Shown in pieces: positions 7,499 to 62,820 of a stretch of 64,000 nucleotides of DNA. The DNA comes from Patescibacteria group bacterium (GTDB lineage: Bacteria; Patescibacteriota; Minisyncoccia; Phycocordibacterales; Phycocordibacteraceae): positions 141,717-205,716 of the forward strand of contig JAHJYC010000004.1 in assembly GCA_018826905.1 (NCBI GenBank), written 5' to 3'. The notes under the pieces were generated by a model, which worked only from the letters and a program-made list of their open reading frames with translations, ran no database searches and was not told the DNA's origin. Both the position numbers and the translations under genes were made by a program. Each line of letters opens with the position of its first letter. Positions within the stretch are counted from its first letter, which is position 1.

Positions 7499-8392
7499 TT
7501 ACGCCCCCTTTCCAAGCAACGCTTCAACCCTGTCCTCAACCGGCGGATGCGTTGAGAAGATGCGGTTCATGAACTTGCCTGCTTGGTTTCCAAAAGGGTT
7601 TCCGATAAAGAGGTGCGCTGTTGCATGATTGGCCCGGCGCATAGGCTGCGCATATCCACTAATCTTCTGAAGTGCTGACGCAAGTCCCTCAGGATAGCGC
7701 GTAAGGAGAGCTCCAGAGGAGTCCGCAAGGAACTCTCTTCTTCTAGAAATTGCCATCTGAATAAGTTGGGCTGCGAGTGGCGCCAAGATTGCTGCAACAA
7801 GAGCGAGTACAAGGAAGAGCGCTCCGCTCTTGTTGTCTCCTCTATCGCCCCCGCCAAACAACGACATGCGTAAGAACAAATCTGCGATTATGGCAATAAA
7901 GCCCGCAAGCACCACAGCAACGGTCATAACTAGCATGTCCTTATTTCTGATGTGTGAAAGCTCATGTGCAATAACTCCCTCAAGTTCAGCACGGGTAAGC
8001 AAGGAAAGAAGACCAGTGGTTGCGGCTACAACAGCATGCTTTTCATCCCTTCCAGTTGCAAACGCATTCGGTGCTGGGTCTTCAATAACATAGAGCTTCG
8101 GCATTTCCATCCCTGCTGTAATAGAAAGGTTCTCTGTAACTGTATAGAGATCAAAATACTCCTCACGGGTAGCAGGACGTGCTCCGTTCATAGAGAGTGC
8201 AATCTTATCGGAGAACCAGTAGCTCCCTACATTCATAAGCACGGAAAAGATAACTGCTCCATACAAAATAGCAGGGGAGTTGTAGTACCAAGACACTGCC
8301 CACCCAATAGCAATAACTATAATCAAGAACACTGCCATGAGCATGTAGGTCTTGAATACGTTATGTGATCTTTCTTGGTAGAGGTCTGCCAT
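7499..8392 (-). CDS. htpX: Zinc metalloprotease HtpX (peptidase M48).
   Basis: 297 aa with N-terminal TM helices, an HELSH zinc-binding HExxH motif, and a C-terminal region of M48/HtpX type. Confidence 0.9.
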   Translation of the reverse strand: MADLYQERSHNVFKTYMLMAVFLIIVIAIGWAVSWYYNSPAILYGAVIFSVLMNVGSYWFSDKIALSMNGARPATREEYFDLYTVTENLSITAGMEMPKLYVIEDPAPNAFATGRDEKHAVVAATTGLLSLLTRAELEGVIAHELSHIRNKDMLVMTVAVVLAGFIAIIADLFLRMSLFGGGDRGDNKSGALFLVLALVAAILAPLAAQLIQMAISRRREFLADSSGALLTRYPEGLASALQKISGYAQPMRRANHATAHLFIGNPFGNQAGKFMNRIFSTHPPVEDRVEALLGKGA

Positions 8393-11281: not shown

Positions 11282-11593
11282 CTACTGAATAACGGCAAGC
11301 ACATTGGACTCAGAGAGTATGAAATACTCCTGTCCATCAATCTTTACCTCGTCAAATCCGTACTTAGAGAACAGAACGGTGTCTCCAATCTTTACAGAGA
11401 GGGGAATGAGCTTGCCGTCTTCTGTGCGACCTTTGCCAACTGCAACTATTGTTCCGCGTTCTGGTTTTTCTCGGTTGCCCGTGTCGGGGAGGATAATGCC
11501 CATTGCCGATACCTCATCCTTCTTAAGAGGTTGGACAACGACACGATCTCCAAGCGGCGTAATTGAAAGAGTCTCACGTGCTGCTTTAGCCAT
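11282..11593 (-). CDS. groS: Co-chaperonin GroES (Hsp10).
   Basis: 103 aa with the PLGDRVVVQ mobile-loop region and a GroES fold. It lies immediately upstream of groEL. Confidence 0.95.
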   Translation of the reverse strand: MAKAARETLSITPLGDRVVVQPLKKDEVSAMGIILPDTGNREKPERGTIVAVGKGRTEDGKLIPLSVKIGDTVLFSKYGFDEVKIDGQEYFILSESNVLAVIQ

Positions 11594-53528: not shown

Positions 53529-54356
53529 TCAAGGGCGCTTCCACATAACTTCCATCTCTTTTTCGGACTTTTTAGGATGCGTGCTGAAAAGAAGTGTAGA
53601 ACCTTCCTTCGGGAAGTCTTCAATACGAACGACATCCGGTTCTAGGTCAAAATGCTCTGTAACTACACGAAGAGATTCCAGAACTGACACAAACACCTCC
53701 TTAGTAGCAACAGTCTTAAGAAAGTTTATATATGGACGATCCTGTAGGAAGTCTCGGTTCCCAAACTGAGCATGGGTGAACCCGGAGAGTCGTGAGTAAA
53801 GTGGGGCATGGGTGTCTTTGAGATCGAGCTCTGAAAATATCTCGCTTATACTCTTGCCGTCCCAGTGATGCCTTCTCTTTCCTGCTGGCTTATGACTCTT
53901 TAGTTCCTCCTGCATTTTCCTGAGCAACTTGGCCTGCAATTCGGATATATTCGGTAGACTTTCCGTTCGCATCACATACTCACGTAGTGGATAGTGATAA
54001 AAATTCCGCGCTCGCTGCTCCGTGTCCTTTTGATAGATGTATTGGAGATTTATGGAGTTCTCAAGTAGAGACCGTGCAAGTGTGAGGCATGGAAGGAATC
54101 TGCCTTTCTTGCGTAGAGTGATAATAGACTCGTATATGTCTATATTCTCCTCTACCAGGAAACGCGTAACTGCAAAAAGCTCTGGAGTGGTTTTCCTTTC
54201 CAGCTGACTTAGGTTTGAAAGATATCTGTGCAGGAATACTACGATCTCTCGCAGGTCCTTTATCTCTCCACTTTCCCAGAATCTAAGCATATACAGGGAG
54301 TATATGCTTCCTGGCCAGGATGACGAATTAGGGATTAAATTCACTCGCACCAACAT
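53529..54356 (-). CDS. Hypothetical alpha-helical protein carrying a HEPN-like Rx5H motif (YSRLSGFTHAQ); a candidate Abi/HEPN RNase-like protein.
   Basis: 275 aa in the AT-richer region flanking the integrative island. Its start overlaps the upstream membrane-protein gene by 29 nt, so the two are likely translationally coupled. Confidence 0.35.
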   Translation of the reverse strand: MLVRVNLIPNSSSWPGSIYSLYMLRFWESGEIKDLREIVVFLHRYLSNLSQLERKTTPELFAVTRFLVEENIDIYESIITLRKKGRFLPCLTLARSLLENSINLQYIYQKDTEQRARNFYHYPLREYVMRTESLPNISELQAKLLRKMQEELKSHKPAGKRRHHWDGKSISEIFSELDLKDTHAPLYSRLSGFTHAQFGNRDFLQDRPYINFLKTVATKEVFVSVLESLRVVTEHFDLEPDVVRIEDFPKEGSTLLFSTHPKKSEKEMEVMWKRP

Positions 54357-55005
54357 ATTTACCTACGACAGCACTCGACTTGGAGGCTGCTGGGAAGAAA
54401 GACAGTGTATTCCGATACAGCATGTTCTCTAGTTCGCCGTCGAAAGACGCGATGTAGTGCCGCTCAAGCAATGCTGTTTCCTCAGCAGTACGTGCTCTTC
54501 CAAGAGAAAGAGTGCCGTATTGGCGATACGCTAGATTGAGCGCATTCGCATCGTCAAAGAAATTGAGTGAGACTTTCGTGCCATGCGCTTTGGTCAGATC
54601 ACGAACCCATCCCGTAACATTATTCTTGAACGAAGCATCTGATAGCTCCACTGGGTCTATGAGCAGATAGAAGACAATTCCTCCATCAGATCGCTCTTTA
54701 GAAGTTTGTACGATTTGGGGTGCTGTAGGCACCAGAGACTCACTTACTGACTGGACTTGTGCAATTGATTCAGTTGTTGCTGGGGTTTCGGCCTCAACCT
54801 CTATAGAAGGCTCAACGGTCGTAATCACAGGAGGCTTAGAATCACTCGGAGGAGCCGTGGCACCAAAAAGAATAAAGAGAACCACTAGCGTAGCTCCAAA
54901 ACCAAGTCCGATGACTTTTCTAGACTGCTTAAAGACTGAAGGCTTAATCAAACCAACGACAAGTCCGACAAGAGACACGAAAAACAGAAAGAGAAAAATA
55001 CCCAT
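54328..55005 (-). CDS. Hypothetical membrane-anchored protein (N-terminal TM helix, Pro/Thr-rich linker, globular C-terminal domain).
   Basis: 225-aa ORF. The left copy of the island direct repeat lies within codons ~25-31. Confidence 0.4.
   Translation of the reverse strand: MGIFLFLFFVSLVGLVVGLIKPSVFKQSRKVIGLGFGATLVVLFILFGATAPPSDSKPPVITTVEPSIEVEAETPATTESIAQVQSVSESLVPTAPQIVQTSKERSDGGIVFYLLIDPVELSDASFKNNVTGWVRDLTKAHGTKVSLNFFDDANALNLAYRQYGTLSLGRARTAEETALLERHYIASFDGELENMLYRNTLSFFPAASKSSAVVGKYVGASEFNP
54908..54929 (+). repeat. Left direct repeat CCGATGACTTTTCTAGACTGCT (attL-like).
   Basis: It matches 60931-60951 at 20/21 positions with a single 1-nt indel; 16 nt are identical (ACTTTTCTAGACTGCT). 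Confidence 0.6.
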
Positions 55006-55290
55006 ACGTAGTTCCTTTAAGGCGAGTAAGCCTAGAAGCGGAATTGTGCGGGTAGCACAAAACCCGCCACCAGGAGCCCGAAGGCCTATAGAAGTTTCCC
55101 TCTATAACGTAGGACACGCCCTGATGACGGGTTTTCTATGTCCTACGATTTTCGACCATGCTCGGGATTCCTCCGCAGGTTTAGGTCATTCTTATTCAGT
55201 TGTTGCCCAGGCTTAGCGCCGTACTAGAACATTAGCGTACAAACGAGAAAGTGTGTAGGTCAGAGCCATAAGCGAGTATAATTTGACTCA

Positions 55291-57597
55291 ATGCCCGATT
55301 ACAATTTCCAAACCCTTAACGATAGAGAGTTTGAGAGGTTAACTCGTGATTTATTGCAAAAGGAAACAGGTCTTACGTTCGAGAGTTTTAAACCTGGGCG
55401 TGATGGGGGTATAGATTTACGCCATTCCTCTCCAACAGAAGATGTGACTACTATTGTTCAGGCAAAGCATCGAGTCCGAGCCAGCTATAAGGATCTTTTG
55501 TATGACCTCAGCAAGACTGAGCTACCAAAAGTTAAGAAGCTGGAGCCCTCACGTTACATATTAGTAACTAGTGTTGAATTTAATCCCGCCCAAAAGAAAG
55601 AACTGAAGAATCTTTTTGCTCCCTATGTTCTTACGACTGGAGATATCCTTGGTAGAGATGACTTAAACGGACTGCTCGGAAAATTTTCTGAAATTGAAGA
55701 GAAGCATCCAAAACTATGGTTATCGAGTATTCCTATACTTAATAAGATTGTAAATAACGGTATAAAGGGCCGTTCTGATTTTACAGACGAAGTGATTAGA
55801 AAGAACGTAAGCCTATATGTAGCCAATGAAACATATGCCGAGGCTCTTGAAATTCTTAACGAAGAACAATTTCTTGTAATAGTTGGGGAACCGGGAATCG
55901 GAAAGACGGTTCTTGCAAAAATGCTTATTTATCAGTTGCTTGGAAACGACTACAGACTCGTGACTGTAACAGAAAAGATCTCCGAAGCAGAAGATTTGTG
56001 GGAACCTGAACAGAAACAAGTGTTTTATTTCGATGATTTTCTTGGAGCCAACTACTTAGAAATAGCTCAGTATCATAACGGTGATTCAGCCCTAGTGAAC
56101 TTTATAGCCCGAATAAAATTAGATCCTCTTAAACGTCTTATGCTGACGAGCAGGACTGCAGTTTTGAACCAAGCGGCTCAGGTTTATCCGCGTCTAGAAG
56201 CACCCGGGCTTGAGCTGGCGCGGCACGAAGTAAAAATTGAGGACTACTCAAAGCTAGACAAGGCTCAGATTTTGTATAACCACCTTTACTTTCTAGGTTT
56301 GGGAGAAGATTACAAGCAAAAGGTAAAAGAAGACAAGAATTACTGGAAAATTATAAAGCACAAAAACTATAATCCGCGCCTGATTGAGTTCATTTCTGAC
56401 CCACTGAGACTGAAGGAGGTACCGCCTGAAGATTATATGGGTTTTATACAGGAGAGACTGGATAATCCTGCGGACATATGGAAGCAAGCATATTTACATC
56501 AGACGGACGACTACTGTAAATTCTTGATTCAATCGCTATTTTCTCTTGGCGAAAAAGTTCCCGAACGAATTCTAAAGAGAGCATTTAATGCGCGTTTAGA
56601 CTACGAAATAGAGCACAATGGCTTTCGAAGAGAAGCAGATGTTTATGCATTGCGTCTCAAGCATTTAATGGGCGGATTCTTAAAGGCAGTCAGGCACGGG
56701 GAGAATGTTTATCTCAGTTTCTTTAACCCTTCTATTACAGACTTCTTGTTGCACTACTTAAGTGAGAATAAAGATGAGAAGTGGCGAATACTTAACTCTG
56801 TGATTTTTACATCACAACTTACAAATCGCTTTATAACCAGTAAAGATTCATTGCTCGCGTTCGTCGAGGACGAAATATCGCCACTTGAAGCACTTATATC
56901 GAGAAGAGCTGACGACCTGGTAGACCCAGAAGGCGGATCCAGAGATATAGAGCTACTACACTTTTATTACTTTGCCTTCCCTGTTGATCTTATTGATACT
57001 AAATCTGCACCTATTTTAGAACGCTTGGATCTAGATGAAGCTTTACCATCACAGTTTGATGCATTGCTATCAACTCTTGATGCACTTCAAACATACGACG
57101 AGTCAATTCGGATAGTTAAGAGTCGCTTTCGTGAAATTATAAATTATCTTTTTAGTTCTGATACCGGCGGGAGAAAACTTAGTTCTATCAAGAAGCTTTT
57201 CAAGGCCTACGATGAAAGTTATGAGGAATATATTGCTGACGAGAATAGCCGAACTATTGTTGAATCAGCATTAACCCGACACTGGGGCGAGCGAATTAGC
57301 GATATAGAGGCCGGGCAAGATTCAGACGTTGCGGAATTTGGCACTTCTTCTGAGATTGAGACTTTCATAGGAGAAATTCAAGAGGACGGGAGGCAATATA
57401 ATAGGAGTTTTGGGTTCGCTGAACTGCGAATAATGGAAAGTTTCGAAGATATAGATTATGACGAGATTGCAAGATCCTCAAGAGAGCGTGCACAAATAGA
57501 AGACTATATGTCCGACTACCATGCAGAGGAATATTATTCTGAGCGTTCTGAACCTCAAAGAAACGAGAATGCGGAAATAGACGAATTATTTCAATAA
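55291..57597 (+). CDS. Mrr-like PD-(D/E)xK restriction-endonuclease domain fused to a STAND-like P-loop NTPase and a helical C-terminal region (Avs/AVAST-like architecture).
   Basis: The N-terminus FERLTRDLLQKETGLTFESFKPGRDGGIDLRHS...IVQAKH gives a D...(Q)xK Mrr_cat-like pattern. Walker A is GEPGIGKT and Walker B is VFYFDDFLG (hhhhDD, STAND type). A C-terminal ~400-aa alpha-helical region ends in an acidic, Tyr-rich tail. Confidence 0.55.
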   Translation: MPDYNFQTLNDREFERLTRDLLQKETGLTFESFKPGRDGGIDLRHSSPTEDVTTIVQAKHRVRASYKDLLYDLSKTELPKVKKLEPSRYILVTSVEFNPAQKKELKNLFAPYVLTTGDILGRDDLNGLLGKFSEIEEKHPKLWLSSIPILNKIVNNGIKGRSDFTDEVIRKNVSLYVANETYAEALEILNEEQFLVIVGEPGIGKTVLAKMLIYQLLGNDYRLVTVTEKISEAEDLWEPEQKQVFYFDDFLGANYLEIAQYHNGDSALVNFIARIKLDPLKRLMLTSRTAVLNQAAQVYPRLEAPGLELARHEVKIEDYSKLDKAQILYNHLYFLGLGEDYKQKVKEDKNYWKIIKHKNYNPRLIEFISDPLRLKEVPPEDYMGFIQERLDNPADIWKQAYLHQTDDYCKFLIQSLFSLGEKVPERILKRAFNARLDYEIEHNGFRREADVYALRLKHLMGGFLKAVRHGENVYLSFFNPSITDFLLHYLSENKDEKWRILNSVIFTSQLTNRFITSKDSLLAFVEDEISPLEALISRRADDLVDPEGGSRDIELLHFYYFAFPVDLIDTKSAPILERLDLDEALPSQFDALLSTLDALQTYDESIRIVKSRFREIINYLFSSDTGGRKLSSIKKLFKAYDESYEEYIADENSRTIVESALTRHWGERISDIEAGQDSDVAEFGTSSEIETFIGEIQEDGRQYNRSFGFAELRIMESFEDIDYDEIARSSRERAQIEDYMSDYHAEEYYSERSEPQRNENAEIDELFQ

Positions 57598-57658
57598 CCA
57601 TTTATCCCCTTCCCGGTTTACTAGACTTCCCGGCGGTATCCAGTATGTTCGTGTCTGT

Positions 57659-58987
57659 ATGGAGACAACAATGCTCTATGGAGCTCAGACAGCCGCCCCG
57701 GCACACCAAGCAGCGGTTACCGTCAGATACTGCCTGTATGCCCGTAAATCGAGCGAGGCAGAGGAGCGACAGGCGCTTTCGATAGATTCTCAGGTTAACG
57801 AGATGTTGGCCCTAGCCCAGCGAGAGGGACTGACAATTGTCGACATGTACCGAGAATCTCACTCGGCCAAGGATTGCGGGCAACGGCCAGTATTCAACCA
57901 ACTCCTCACAGACATACGCGAGGGTAAGTTTGACGGAATCCTCGCATGGCACCCTGACCGACTCTCTCGCAACGCCGGGGACCTCGGAGCTATCGTTGAC
58001 CTCTTTGATCAGAAGAAGCTTCTTGAGATACGTACCCATAGTCAGCGATTCACGAATAACCCGAATGAGAAATTCCTTCTCATGATTCTCGGCTCTCAAG
58101 CCAAGCTCGAGAATGACAACAAGAGCATTAATGTGAAGCGCGGACTCAAGACTAAATGCGAGCTTGGGCTTTGGCCTTCAGTAGCGCCAACTGGATACCT
58201 CAACTCCAAGAATAAGGACCAGAAAGGAGTCGTATTCGTGGATCCGGACCGAGCACCAATCATCAAAGAACTATTCAACAAAGTAGCCAATGAAGGATGG
58301 AGCGGACGGAAGATCTACCGCTGGCTCAAAGATATAAAGTTCCTCACTCGCACCGGCAAGCCCCTTACACTCAGCAATGTCTACTGTATTCTCAACAATC
58401 ACTTCTATCACGGTTCATTTGAGTACCCAAAGAACAGCGGTCGGTGGTTCCTGGGCAAACATACTCCGCTCATATCCAAAGAGCTCTTTGATGATGTTCA
58501 GAAACAGCTCCATTTACAGATTAGAGCTCCTAATCGAAATAAGGAGTTCGCTTTCACCCGCCTTCTCTCATGTGGCACATGTGAATCTGGCGTAACAGCA
58601 CAGGAGAAGTTTAAGAGTTTGAAAGACGGATCGATCGCTAAATATATTTATTACGGATGTACGCGTGCGCGGAATATTAACTGTAAGGAGGGCTACATCG
58701 AGGAGAGGGTTCTCATCTCTCAATTAACTGTAATCATTGACCAAATCGACCTTGATCGCTCAGGTATTAAAAAGAAGCTTGAACTTGAGATTGAGCGTCA
58801 CAAGAAATTTCACTCAGGAATTATGGGCAAAACCGACGAAGAGTACTTCGCCAAAGATGCAGACATAAGAAATTACGCTAAGTACCTCCTTACCGAGGGT
58901 TCTATCTTTGAGAAGCGTGACTTACTCACCTGTCTGAAAAGCAAACTTCTTCTAAAGGAAAAGATAATATCTACAACCAGTACCTAG
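57659..58987 (+). CDS. Large serine recombinase (resolvase/invertase catalytic domain plus recombinase domain plus zinc-ribbon domain).
   Basis: The N-terminal resolvase motif YARKSS...Q...SIDSQ carries the catalytic Ser. The length of 442 aa and the Cys cluster CGTCESGVT...YYGCTRARNINC (zinc ribbon) are typical of LSR integrases. Confidence 0.8.
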   Translation: METTMLYGAQTAAPAHQAAVTVRYCLYARKSSEAEERQALSIDSQVNEMLALAQREGLTIVDMYRESHSAKDCGQRPVFNQLLTDIREGKFDGILAWHPDRLSRNAGDLGAIVDLFDQKKLLEIRTHSQRFTNNPNEKFLLMILGSQAKLENDNKSINVKRGLKTKCELGLWPSVAPTGYLNSKNKDQKGVVFVDPDRAPIIKELFNKVANEGWSGRKIYRWLKDIKFLTRTGKPLTLSNVYCILNNHFYHGSFEYPKNSGRWFLGKHTPLISKELFDDVQKQLHLQIRAPNRNKEFAFTRLLSCGTCESGVTAQEKFKSLKDGSIAKYIYYGCTRARNINCKEGYIEERVLISQLTVIIDQIDLDRSGIKKKLELEIERHKKFHSGIMGKTDEEYFAKDADIRNYAKYLLTEGSIFEKRDLLTCLKSKLLLKEKIISTTST

Positions 58988-58993
58988 GAATGA

Positions 58994-60850
58994 TTAGGAG
59001 AAATTAAATTCGTCTTCCTGGAGAGCCTGGTCGACGAAAGTAAAGATTTCTTCAAAAGCCGTTATCGTAGTTTTGCTTAAGTCATCTTTCTTAATCTGTT
59101 TTTTCTTTGCCTTTTCCAAGAACAGTTTTGCAAAGATGTTTTTTCGACTCTTTCCTATATATGAAACGTTATCTTTCTTTTGGGGCTTAGGAGCTAGAGC
59201 AAAGTTCTTTGAACCGCCCGCGATTGTTTGTATATCACTTATCGAAAATAGTTCTTCGATATCAGACACATCGAGGGTCTTAACTTTCTTTTCCGCTCGG
59301 GTCTTGTCTCCAGCAAAAATACCCTCCTTAAGATCATCGAACTTGGCTTGACCGACTGGCTCGCCATCAATTACCACACACCACTTCAAATTGTACCCAA
59401 TACAGATCCCTACAAGAGGGTTCAATTTACTCCCCAATGCCCCAACTCCAGGGATAAGAGCGTAGTCCAATTTCTTTCCAAGAACAATTGCCATTGCTTG
59501 CAAATGCATGTAATCACTTACACCTTCAAGAATTACATTTTTCTCTTTGAAGATGAGATTCTGGTGCGGTACGTCGCAGCCGATTGCGTAGTTAACAAGA
59601 GACATTGCCTCCTGCTTATTCTTAGAATTTCCAATTTGAGTCTTAAGGATATTCTCACAGAGTGTGCCTTGATCCTTATCGTTAAAAACAAGAGCCACAC
59701 GATAGATGGTCTCTAATGGAACTAGAGTCGGTGCATGCGTCGTGTAAAGTATCTGGTGACCGAATTTACCACTAATTTTCTCAAAGACTTTAAGGAGGTC
59801 TTTTTGAGCATTTATGTGAAGGCTTCTATCAGGTTCATCCACCAAAATTATGGCCTTCTTTTCTTTTAATGATTTTAGTGCCAACCAGAAAGATAGGAAC
59901 CAGATCATTCCCTGGCTGCGCATTCTAACTGGTAGTTCTTTCCCTTCTTTGGTCCTAACAGCAAAGTCGATATAGTTCTTTTCAACTTCATCCTCTTTCT
60001 CTTTTCTCTTTTCGATATTAAAAACCAACCCAAGTTTATCGTTCTCAATCCCGTGAAGTTTTTGAGAAAAGTCATTTTTCAGGTCGGCAGTAATATCAGA
60101 AATTCGTTTATTGGTTTCATCAAGGCGACGAATGGAAGGCGTCTCTGCAAGAGACTTGAAGGTAAAATCTGCATTCCCAGTAAGCTCCTGGAGACAAGCT
60201 TCCAACCATGTGACCGAAACCCAGCCATCTCCAGTTTCTTCCACCAGATCATCAATTGATATGAAATCTGGAAGCGTATCGCAAGTCCCTCCTTCAAAAA
60301 ATATAAACTCCGGAATGATGTTATCTACAATGAACTTTCCTACATCTGGGGTAAGGATAGAAGCGTCAAACTCTTCTTCATTTTCATCGGCATCTTCCTC
60401 AGCCTCTACCGATGCTGCACCGGTAGACTCGACCTCAAGGTTATTAATTAAGGCATTCTGAAAAGTTGTATCCAATGAGTAGTTCTTTCCATCAAAAGTA
60501 AGAGTAAAATTTGAAATACGGCTTATGGTATTTGGCTTAAATGCCACAACCTCCTTGAATATTTCCTCGTTCGCGAAATTCTCGATTTCATCTAGAATCG
60601 CAGGCTTATCATCAGCTGCCTCGAAAGAAAACTGACATGAGACAACTTGATCAAGCCCTGCTGGGGATTCATACGGGTAGGAGTCCCCATCAAACTCACC
60701 ATTATAAAAATCTCTCAGGGCCTCTAAGATGCTTGATTTCCCCGATTCATTCTGTCCGATCAGAGACAGAATATTGTCACTTTGACCCAAATCAACCTCT
60801 ACCCTAACGATAGATTTGTAGTTGTGAATCTCAACCTTATCTAGCTTCAT
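58994..60850 (-). CDS. OLD-family nuclease (N-terminal ABC-type ATPase plus C-terminal TOPRIM domain); a stand-alone Class-1-like gene.
   Basis: Walker A is GQNESGKSS. The Q-loop, signature and Walker B are present (AIILVDEPDRSLH), and a TOPRIM-like VILEGVSDYMHL...VVIDGE follows. There is no adjacent UvrD-like partner gene. Confidence 0.75.
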   Translation of the reverse strand: MKLDKVEIHNYKSIVRVEVDLGQSDNILSLIGQNESGKSSILEALRDFYNGEFDGDSYPYESPAGLDQVVSCQFSFEAADDKPAILDEIENFANEEIFKEVVAFKPNTISRISNFTLTFDGKNYSLDTTFQNALINNLEVESTGAASVEAEEDADENEEEFDASILTPDVGKFIVDNIIPEFIFFEGGTCDTLPDFISIDDLVEETGDGWVSVTWLEACLQELTGNADFTFKSLAETPSIRRLDETNKRISDITADLKNDFSQKLHGIENDKLGLVFNIEKRKEKEDEVEKNYIDFAVRTKEGKELPVRMRSQGMIWFLSFWLALKSLKEKKAIILVDEPDRSLHINAQKDLLKVFEKISGKFGHQILYTTHAPTLVPLETIYRVALVFNDKDQGTLCENILKTQIGNSKNKQEAMSLVNYAIGCDVPHQNLIFKEKNVILEGVSDYMHLQAMAIVLGKKLDYALIPGVGALGSKLNPLVGICIGYNLKWCVVIDGEPVGQAKFDDLKEGIFAGDKTRAEKKVKTLDVSDIEELFSISDIQTIAGGSKNFALAPKPQKKDNVSYIGKSRKNIFAKLFLEKAKKKQIKKDDLSKTTITAFEEIFTFVDQALQEDEFNFS

Positions 60851-60930
60851 GATGCCCTCATTTTACTACTGTCTGGTGGAAGTTCCACCCCGGACAGGGA
60901 TAGTGGCAATTAGGGACCCGTCTAGGTCCT

Positions 60931-60951
60931 TCGATACTTTTCTAGACTGCT
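60931..60951 (+). repeat. Right direct repeat TCGATACTTTTCTAGACTGCT (attR-like), abutting and overlapping the 3' end of tRNA-Gln by 2 nt.
   Basis: See the left repeat. It lies immediately 3' of the tRNA gene on the tRNA strand. Confidence 0.6.
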
Positions 60952-61020
60952 GCGGGACTAGGACTCGAACCTAGATAGACGGTACCAGAAACCGTAGTCC
61001 TACCATTAGACGATCCCGCA
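60950..61020 (-). tRNA. tRNA-Gln (anticodon CUG).
   Basis: The minus-strand sequence UGCGGGAUCGUCUAAUGGUAGGACUACGGUUUCUGGUACCGUCUAUCUAGGUUCGAGUCCUAGUCCCGCAG folds as a cloverleaf with a U1:A72 pair (typical of tRNA-Gln), an ACGGU/ACCGU anticodon stem, loop UUCUGGU, and a GGUUCGAGUCC T-arm. No CCA is encoded. Confidence 0.85.
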
Positions 61021-61767: not shown

Positions 61768-62820
61768 ATGTTTCATCTTCTTACGCATTACACGACCGAG
61801 AGCGTTACTGCAGGACACCCAGACAAAGTCTGCGACCAAATATCAGACGCCATCCTAGATGCCTGCCTCACCCAAGACCCAAATAGCCGTGTTGCTGTTG
61901 AAACCTTTGGGAGCCACGGCACACTCATGATTGGCGGCGAGGTTACCACAACAGCCTCTGTAGATTACGAAGCAATCGCACGCGAAGTGTATGCCTCTAT
62001 TGGCTACACAGAAGACCTAGAGGTGCTCTCACGCGTTGTAACGCAGTCCGGAGACATTGCTATGGGAGTAGACACAGGAGGCGCCGGAGACCAGGGAATT
62101 ATGTACGGCTACGCAACGAACGAGACTGATCAGTATCTTCCGTTAGGTGTTGTGCTCGCCCACGGACTCGCACGAAAACTAGAGGAGCTTCGCACGAGCG
62201 GGACACTCCCCTACCTGCGTCCAGACGGAAAGACTCAGGTAACCATAAAGAATGGAGAAGTAATCACCGGCCTCACTTCAACCCAACACACTGAAGAGAC
62301 TGAACTTGAAACAATCCGTGAGGATCTAACCAAGCACCTCTTCACACCAATCCTCGGAGACCTAAGTAACATAGAAATCCTCGTAAACCCAACAGGACGT
62401 TTCGTACAAGGCGGGTTTGAGGCAGACGCAGGTCTTACCGGTCGCAAGATAATGGTAGACACCTATGGAGGACTTATGCCACACGGCGGGGGCTGCTTCT
62501 CAGGAAAAGATGCAACAAAAGTAGACCGCTCTGCAGCCTATATGTGTCGCTTTGTAGCAAAGAACCTTGTTGCAAACGGACACGCAAAGAAAGCACTCGT
62601 CTCAGTTGCCTACGCTATTGGCCGTGTTGACCCAGTTATGGTTGAAGCATTTGATGAGAACGGAAAGAATCTCTCAGAGATTGTGAACACACACTTTGAC
62701 TTCCGTCCTCTTATGATTCGCGAGCGACTTGGACTCACCCGTCCTATATTCCGCGAGACTGCCGCATACGGACACTTCGGAGTTCAGGGCCGTCCCTGGG
62801 AAGAAATTATCTCTCTTTAG
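61768..62820 (+). CDS. metK: S-adenosylmethionine synthetase (methionine adenosyltransferase).
   Basis: The signature ESVTAGHPDKVCDQISDAILDA, GGGAFSGKD-like GGGCFSGKDATKVDRSAAY, and C-terminal AYGHFG. At 350 aa it is somewhat shorter than E. coli MetK. Confidence 0.92.
   Translation: MFHLLTHYTTESVTAGHPDKVCDQISDAILDACLTQDPNSRVAVETFGSHGTLMIGGEVTTTASVDYEAIAREVYASIGYTEDLEVLSRVVTQSGDIAMGVDTGGAGDQGIMYGYATNETDQYLPLGVVLAHGLARKLEELRTSGTLPYLRPDGKTQVTIKNGEVITGLTSTQHTEETELETIREDLTKHLFTPILGDLSNIEILVNPTGRFVQGGFEADAGLTGRKIMVDTYGGLMPHGGGCFSGKDATKVDRSAAYMCRFVAKNLVANGHAKKALVSVAYAIGRVDPVMVEAFDENGKNLSEIVNTHFDFRPLMIRERLGLTRPIFRETAAYGHFGVQGRPWEEIISL

Follow-up and report, generated by a model that had tools for sequence, protein, structure and literature searches.

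The 64,000-nucleotide stretch analysed here, referred to below as the window, comes from a Patescibacteria group bacterium (contig JAHJYC010000004.1, positions 141,717 to 205,716) and carries on its minus strand, at 58994..60850, a gene for a nuclease of the OLD family, in which an ABC-type ATPase is joined to a TOPRIM domain. By architecture and context this OLD is Class 1 in type, and it is a divergent addition to the known Class-1-type OLDs, located on a compact defence element at a tRNA-Gln gene. The reading we favour, with a probability of about 0.78, is that it is an autonomous nuclease with an anti-phage role, carried as cargo of a serine-recombinase element, and that a gene of the PDC-S73 family on the same element is a second, independently functional defence gene. 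Class 1 (solo) OLDs are reported to be rare, at 0.45% of genomes, and few have been assayed (PMC12392090). The gene and its parts are the following:

58994..60850, minus strand: OLD-family nuclease gene, a 618-codon open reading frame (ORF; 618 aa), Class 1 in type
59720..60850, minus strand: ABC/SMC-type ATPase domain, aa 1-377
60731-60757, minus strand: Walker A, G32-S40 (GQNESGKSS, residues 32-40)
within 59816-59848, minus strand: Walker B, D338-E339, inside ILVDEPDRSLH (residues 335-345)
59216..59551, minus strand: TOPRIM nuclease domain, aa ~434-545, with E442, S445, D446, D495-G-E497 and E532
58997..59215, minus strand: C-terminal helical region with invariant K570, from the alignment and predicted helices at 561-611

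Judged by its sequence, the protein is a genuine OLD-family ATPase-TOPRIM protein whose predicted catalytic residues are all intact in both domains. The features of the family are present: an ABC-type ATPase at the N-terminus that has Walker A, Walker B and an H-loop, and at the C-terminus a TOPRIM domain with the catalytic Glu and an acidic motif of the DxD type. Residues 1-377 match the whole of Pfam AAA_15, the model of the ABC-type ATPase that typifies OLD, AriA and GajA proteins (E 1.6e-31). This domain has a signature-like R311-S312-x-G314 and an H-loop at T371-H372; a helical domain is inserted in it, and it also has an acidic loop that is disordered. Across 33 aligned relatives, the invariant residues of the ATPase are G32-Q-N-E-x-G-K38, R311-S312-x-G314, D338-E339 and T371-H372, and those of the TOPRIM part are E442 and S445 (in 'LEGxSD'), D495, E532 and K570; D446 is nearly invariant. 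A profile made from this alignment finds the Class 1 OLD of Thermus scotoductus (TsOLD, 6P74) as the best solved relative (E 3.5e-20), with the match extending through the catalytic Glu and the acidic motif. The AlphaFold2 model (mean pLDDT 82) has 6P74 as its first Foldseek match, and three GajA structures and the retron Eco8 OLD are also among the top matches.

These results agree with an initial annotation of the window, which had identified both Walker motifs and the OLD family and had proposed profile searches with GajA, AriA and Old models. In such searches, the AriA (ATPase only) and Old models of PADLOC and its models of several types of GajA gave matches at 1e-30 to 1e-16, and NCBIfam gave far-sub-threshold matches alone. 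The annotation had also read a TOPRIM-like Glu and a DxD motif; the Glu stands, as the invariant E442, and the acidic motif is instead DxE (D495-G-E497). The disordered loop in the ATPase insert, EAEEDADENEEEF, is strongly acidic (residues 143-158, window 60377-60424; pLDDT <50), and its length differs widely among homologues, reaching ~60 residues in protein P0016.

The classes of OLD are set mainly by gene neighbourhood (PMC10568477, PMC12392090, PMC12796447). Class 1 stands alone, Class 2 is found with a UvrD-like GajB, Class 3 is part of a retron, Class 4 consists of a split AriA with AriB, and Class 5, the archaeal Cran1, comes with the gene of a membrane protein. Because ATPase and TOPRIM are fused in the window protein, and the element holds no helicase, reverse transcriptase or AriB-like gene, the protein falls into Class 1 in type, in line with the earlier proposal of a Class-1-like solo OLD. 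The Class 1 trait of a stand-alone fused gene without a conserved partner is found here, the neighbours of relatives being varied (recombinase, Type I restriction-modification (R-M) genes, methyltransferases). At 618 aa, the protein departs marginally from the Class 1 range of 500-600 aa (PMC12392090), the extra length being made up of the ATPase inserts and the disordered acidic loop. An early criterion, that Class 1 genes do not lie near other defence genes (PMC10568477), does not describe the window, where the PDC-S73 gene is 1.4 kb away on the same element; it is no longer defining, because the Class 1 OLD of Vibrio cholerae (Vc OLD) also breaks it (PMC12392090).

Membership of the other systems was considered and rejected. 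Gabija (Class 2) is ruled out by the lack of an adjacent GajB: no GajB-type helicase (UvrD/PcrA/Rep-like), and no UvrD or Hsd homologue, was found anywhere in the 64-kb window. A retron (Class 3) is ruled out in that there is no reverse transcriptase among the genes of the element and no retron RNA in the Rfam scan, where the sole noncoding RNA is LOOT, 3.8 kb from the OLD gene; the NCBIfam model of the retron Eco8 effector scores 32.8 bits against a cut-off of 250. PARIS (Class 4) is ruled out by the fusion of the two domains, the AriA match (2.8e-30) being to the generic ATPase of aa 1-377 only. Cran1 (Class 5) belongs to an archaeal clade, forms an operon with a membrane protein and has an essential cell-cycle role (PMC12796447); the bacterial host, the mobile-element context and the absence of a co-oriented membrane-protein gene set the window OLD apart from it in a comparison of contexts. 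Finally, the mad3 ATPase of MADS is excluded by an NCBIfam MAD3 score of 40 bits against a 420 cut-off and by the absence of a mad locus.

Among the closest known counterparts are solo OLDs. TsOLD resembles the window protein in fold, in the aligned catalytic Glu and acidic motif, and in having no partner gene. It differs in sequence (~13-14% identity in structural alignments), in length (a 6P74 chain of 528 residues vs 618 aa with larger ATPase inserts and the acidic loop), in its acidic motif (DED vs DxE), and in context, the window OLD being carried on a serine-recombinase element in a bacterium of the candidate phyla radiation (CPR). TsOLD was never assayed against phage (PMC10568477). Vc OLD is likewise a solo OLD that shares a phage defence element with a second, independent system, DarTG, an example of co-residence that need not imply functional coupling (PMC12392090). 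Compared by description only, it differs in clade and host; its nicking of DNA is proven, and a phage inhibitor of it is known. P2 Old, with which Class 1 was founded, is a fused ATPase-TOPRIM on an integrated mobile element that excludes a rival to the carrier's benefit; inhibition of RecBCD triggers it, and it cleaves the anticodon stems of tRNA (PMC12445682). The GajA of Gabija differs in its adjacent UvrD-like GajB, which is missing in the window and among the OLD relatives. The ABC-ATPase(-TOPRIM) genes that lie within R-M, BREX and Hma loci (HEC-04, PrrC and RloC; Payne et al. 2024) are reminiscent of those OLD relatives that are likewise R-M-embedded; of these, HEC-04 fuses ATPase and TOPRIM and gives defence by itself. 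The window OLD differs from them in lying outside any R-M system, none being present in the 64-kb window. For HEC-01A, the PADLOC matches cover the ATPase only.

In a search of 5.8 billion proteins, one identical protein was found, annotated 'ATP-binding protein [Patescibacteria group bacterium]', along with ~15 relatives at 53-83% identity and many at 26-38%; a PF20469 match is on record for several of the relatives. The subfamily is modest in size (191 clusters of 50% identity at E <= 1e-30 among 1.84 billion representatives) and forms a divergent clade centred on Patescibacteria and Bacteroidota. A phage collection of 50,697 records held no relative above 29% identity, and that match was partial; a plasmid collection held no close relative, the best being a partial match at 27% identity. 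The clade is therefore without a P2-like phage origin.

The PDC-S73 gene, the recombinase gene and the OLD gene form a unit that is a large serine recombinase element bounded by attachment-site (att) repeats:

54914..54929, no strand assigned: distal att core copy, ACTTTTCTAGACTGCT, a perfect 16-nt direct repeat
55075..55187, minus strand: LOOT RNA (Rfam RF03000), 58.9 bits vs a gathering score of 46.4, near the element's distal end
55291..57597, plus strand: PDC-S73-family defence candidate, 768 aa, with Mrr-type nuclease, nSTAND3 NTPase and a C-terminal region
57659..58987, plus strand: large serine recombinase, 442 aa, convergent with the OLD gene; Pfam Resolvase, Recombinase and Zn_ribbon_recom
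60890..60935, no strand assigned: conserved element-end arm with the palindrome GGACC-n6-GGTCC, from alignment with locus L071
60936..60951, no strand assigned: tRNA-proximal att core copy, overlapping the last 2-3 nt of tRNA-Gln
60949..61020, minus strand: tRNA-Gln(CTG), the integration target (ARAGORN; Rfam tRNA 56.6 bits)

The element spans 54930-60951 (6,022 bp) and holds exactly three protein genes and one RNA, which confirms the ~6 kb element with recombinase and Mrr-STAND gene that had been proposed. The OLD gene is its att-proximal cargo gene, and the 3' end of tRNA-Gln(CTG), where the element is inserted, lies ~100 nt from the OLD start codon. The att core occurs twice in the whole window against 0.07 expected copies, and G+C falls from ~0.46 to ~0.40 between the repeats, the distal repeat coinciding with the drop. 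We predict an attP of ttagggacccgtctaggtccttcgat-ACTTTTCTAGACTGCT-taaagactgaaggcttaatc and an attB of gtagctccaaaaccaagtccgatg-ACTTTTCTAGACTGCT-gcgggactaggactcgaacc. Just inside the tRNA-proximal junction, the sequence CAGCAGTCTAG-wwww-GTwyCGAwGGACCyArAsGGGTC is conserved in the related elements of L071 and L002, recurring in L002 80 nt upstream of the OLD gene, and a hairpin is predicted at 60912-60931. Among the recombinase-linked loci compared, this att type is common to L071 and L002 only; core and end arm are absent from L001, L019, L023, L025, L044, L061, L058 and L086. A look-up of the empty attB by the exact flanking DUF1761 protein gave island-bearing contigs only, and all contigs with an identical OLD share the window's context, so that the distal boundary is placed by the repeat and the composition alone. 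The recombinase is CcrB-like by NCBIfam (8.8e-39). The element is a compact CPR example, with a recombinase, two defence genes and a small RNA in 6 kb, of how symbiotic bacteria with tiny genomes gain immunity, in the form of minimal mobile cassettes that sit at a hot spot in a tRNA gene.

By analogy with TsOLD, P2 Old, Vc OLD, GajA and HEC-04, the OLD protein would dimerise through the domain inserted in its ATPase, as TsOLD does, and ATP binding or hydrolysis would gate it upon an infection cue. P2 Old and Vc OLD need such binding or hydrolysis of ATP, which in GajA and YbjD has a regulatory role (PMC12445682, PMC12392090, PMC13261556). The TOPRIM domain would then cut nucleic acid by two-metal catalysis, the target being either replicating phage DNA, as for Vc OLD, TsOLD and GajA, or tRNA anticodon stems, as for P2 Old. 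Vc OLD nicks DNA, TsOLD and P2 Old degrade DNA in vitro, and P2 Old cuts tRNA in vivo. The expected outcome is that phage replication is blocked or the infection aborted, which would protect the host and therefore the element that it carries; the PDC-S73 neighbour would act as a second, independently functional defence gene.

Several points weigh against this account. The Pfam match to the OLD-like TOPRIM (residues 434-496) reaches 19.9 bits and is under the cut-off of 23.2, and the second acidic position of the DxD motif varies across the aligned relatives. The clade is known from sequence alone, in Patescibacteria that are essentially uncultured, and the sequence does not tell the substrate (DNA vs tRNA) or the trigger. 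At least one class of OLD, Cran1, is not a defence protein (PMC12796447). Full independence from the co-resident STAND protein is also not certain, given the strong enrichment of OLD genes beside PDC-S73 described below.

The best-surviving alternative is that OLD and PDC-S73 (Mrr-nSTAND3) constitute a facultative two-gene defence module, an OLD context beyond Classes 1-5 of which the window holds a rearranged copy. The STAND NTPase would be a loosely GajB-like partner, or the two nucleases would act in concert, often joined by an MmeI/BREX-type methyltransferase. We regard such a module as possible, at well below even odds. The STAND gene is not new; it is a full-length member of the PADLOC candidate PDC-S73 (E 4.8e-187, 1-750 of 752 positions; Pfam nSTAND3 1.4e-47 and Mrr_cat 1.6e-6). 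Evidence for the module comes from 80 metagenomic loci with PDC-S73 relatives of 34-48% identity, nine of which have a gene matching the OLD profile. This gene is the immediate neighbour in 8/8 loci with a callable STAND ORF (within-locus P ~1e-4). In the defence-rich loci around OLD relatives, used as a control, 2 of ~1,094 other genes match the OLD profile at E < 1e-8, giving an odds ratio of 48.5 (Fisher p = 6e-8). No other family in the sample is as common next to PDC-S73 as OLD; where flanks are adequate, the OLD gene lies at -1 on the same strand in 6/43 loci and at +1 in 2/39, and stop and start codons overlap in three. The adjacent OLDs have AAA_15 and an above-threshold OLD-like TOPRIM, and their STAND partners are all full-length PDC-S73. 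Six match the PADLOC 'Old' model at 1e-53 to 1e-86; that model gives the window OLD 86.9 bits vs 179-314 for six of the seven distinct full-length PDC-S73-linked OLDs, the seventh (L145/L155) scoring 48.7. An OLD also adjoins three of the five examined closest relatives of the window STAND (P0123, P0126, P0127), and P0126 (locus L178) has a large serine recombinase two genes off, making up the same trio as in the window. In all, the pairing occurs in at least six independent lineages with shuffled partners: STANDs of 73% identity pair with OLDs of 25% identity, OLDs of 64% identity pair with STANDs of 38% identity, and the closest-relative STANDs (46-59% identical) have OLD partners of 22-32%.

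The statistical association of the two families is real. The literature searched does not name PDC-S73, link nSTAND3 to OLD or describe the association. Were the link functional, it would be a new type of OLD partner and a mechanistic handle on PDC-S73, and, since the classes are set by neighbourhood, a new OLD context class. Functional coupling is nevertheless unproven, on several grounds. More than 80% of PDC-S73 loci are without an OLD, as is the 7.7-kb contig of the closest STAND relative (59%), and the identity of the paired OLDs is 20-33%, both with the window OLD and among themselves. The two genes of the window lie on opposite strands with the recombinase gene between them. From the OLD side, no PDC-S73/STAND homologue was found in any of the 85 loci where the OLD ORF could be called (80 loci from species-representative genomes and those of the closest homologues), and in the 83% and 76% relatives only the recombinase travels with the OLD. 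A methyltransferase or MmeI-type gene is adjacent in 5/11 paired loci. Both families embed in R-M/BREX-type loci (10.1101/2024.01.29.577857), so that tight packing alone could create adjacency. The new pairing suggested earlier, with consistent adjacency of the two sets of homologues, therefore fails for this OLD lineage; what holds is that an OLD is the commonest immediate neighbour of PDC-S73, usually directly upstream on the same strand.

Operon-like pairs of OLD followed by PDC-S73 are seen in L106, L123, L131, L145/L155, L102, L103, L111, L175, L178 and L179, and a methyltransferase gene (MmeI, Eco57I or N6_N4) is a frequent addition at -2 or +1; PADLOC would call these two separate single-gene systems. 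The second commonest neighbour family of PDC-S73 is a ~950-aa PHP + SMC_N/AAA_21 ABC-ATPase, seen in L107 (5208-8060) and four further loci and in most cases placed at -1 in opposite orientation, and PDC-S73 is therefore often beside ABC-ATPase genes of more than one kind.

The neighbourhoods of the OLD relatives bear on a further alternative, namely that the OLD mainly serves its element, as an addiction or exclusion factor against rivals at tRNA-Gln or as an accessory to excision, integration or transfer. We consider it unlikely. It would account for the conserved, tightly convergent OLD/recombinase pair, which is kept in the closest homologues L001 (OLD 83%, recombinase 55% identical) and L002 (76% for both), neither with a STAND gene, and again in L023 (OLD 33%); in L001 and L002, homology with the DNA of the window ends at the edges of these two genes. 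A recombinase is also immediately adjacent in L044 and L061, the OLD gene is always at the extreme att-proximal end, and P2 Old, too, is encoded by a prophage and keeps out a rival phage (PMC10568477). In ~9 loci of OLD relatives, a serine recombinase adjoins the OLD or is no more than 4 kb off; against this, ~65 of 76 species-level relatives have none nearby, and many are located within Type I R-M operons. Large serine recombinases do not require an ATPase-nuclease; short att cores and a small directionality factor are all that they need. Exclusion of rivals is mechanistically defence, so that this proposal overlaps with the autonomous defence nuclease that we favour.

The stop codons of the OLD and recombinase genes are 6 nt apart (58988-58993), and in L001 and L023 the genes overlap by 4 nt. 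Terminators would not fit in between, and the two transcripts must therefore have an antisense overlap, an arrangement also in keeping with service to the element and one that could couple expression of the two genes. Promoter and terminator scans over the element gave counts equal to the shuffled expectation and are therefore uninformative on transcription units.

Finally, a housekeeping repair ATPase of RecF/SbcC/Rad50 type, or an inactive relic, is effectively refuted: matches of that type cover the generic ABC head only (NCBIfam RecF 23.9 vs a cut-off of 172, Rad50 22.1 vs 700), the C-terminal TOPRIM is present and conserved with all catalytic residues intact, and the gene lies in a low-GC, recombinase-bearing tRNA insertion, its relatives being patchy in R-M and defence islands.

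The OLD relatives are associated with defence islands and R-M systems and have a TOPRIM, so that the refuting outcomes named in the initial annotation, a RecF/SbcC-type ATPase lacking TOPRIM or homologues never found in defence islands, do not apply. The 65% homologue comes after two DNA methyltransferases, and the 62% homologue lies between hsdM/hsdS and hsdR, overlapping an hsdS gene. Type I R-M genes flank the OLD in ~14 species-level loci (31-62% identity), and more distant relatives sit in R-M and defence islands. Other neighbours are MmeI, a DEAD helicase, T5orf172, GmrSD-HEPN and a C5 methyltransferase, and a UvrD-like gene is near solely in two contexts (L003/L004 and L041), 2 kb off. 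The R-M-embedded OLDs (L006/L012, L017, L034, L037, L045, L046, L050, L053, L069, L070, L081, L085) lie between hsdM/hsdS and hsdR on the same strand, often overlapping, in a prrC-like arrangement.

Elements with a recombinase of the same family are found at tRNA-Gln in L071, L002 and L019. The L071 recombinase, beside a tRNA-Gln(CTG), is a near-identical match to that of the window (phmmer E 7e-237). Its element (L071 1-11700) is ~11 kb and carries a fused HsdM/S, a 36%-identical OLD before HsdR, a 189-aa gene and a distal LOOT; a partial tRNA-Gln copy, 93% identical, lies at 11450-11491, and the right boundary is approximate.

LOOT is an orphan small-RNA family defined by comparative genomics in candidate-phyla bacteria, and we know of no function for it. 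The main text of the paper that defined the family is without a description of LOOT. A covariance model built from the window and L071 copies, searched against the Patescibacteria loci gathered for OLD homologues, gave two further copies, so that LOOT is now located at 55075-55187 (minus strand) in the window, 9712-9862 in L071, 51-186 in L058 and 4490-4619 in L086. A serine recombinase is present in 3/4 of these loci, and LOOT and OLD share a strand in 4/4. A role as the 5' leader of a conserved gene was rejected, the four downstream ORFs being unrelated. The RNA thus gains a reproducible genomic context, and it may be one of the components of those serine-recombinase defence elements of Patescibacteria that target tRNA-Gln.

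Two of the related loci have features of their own. L002 1384-11500 holds apparent tandem elements at tRNA-Gln(TTG): the first, with a 494-aa serine recombinase, a Phage_CRI replication protein and AbiTii, sits between the tRNA and the OLD/recombinase element, and the junction arm of the second, at 7906-7960, matches that of the window. In L001, a tRNA-Leu(CAG) with a 245-nt group I intron (2639-2955; RF00028, 63 bits) is directly upstream of the 83%-identical OLD, and a gene for a 2,032-aa SpvB/RHS toxin follows the recombinase.

At the distal end of the window's element, an ORF of 225 aa on the minus strand (54328-55005), with a predicted membrane-spanning N-terminus and no Pfam domain, has the distal att core in its codons 26-31. 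The element therefore provides the 25 codons ahead of the core and any promoter, and the pre-insertion version of this gene must have begun differently. Just beyond lies a DUF5677 gene (53529-54356, minus strand) with a weak PADLOC AbiB match (E 0.027). On the other side, outside the element, an ordinary S-adenosylmethionine (SAM) riboswitch (RF00162, 61600-61700, plus strand, 46.6 bits) precedes metK at 61768-62820.

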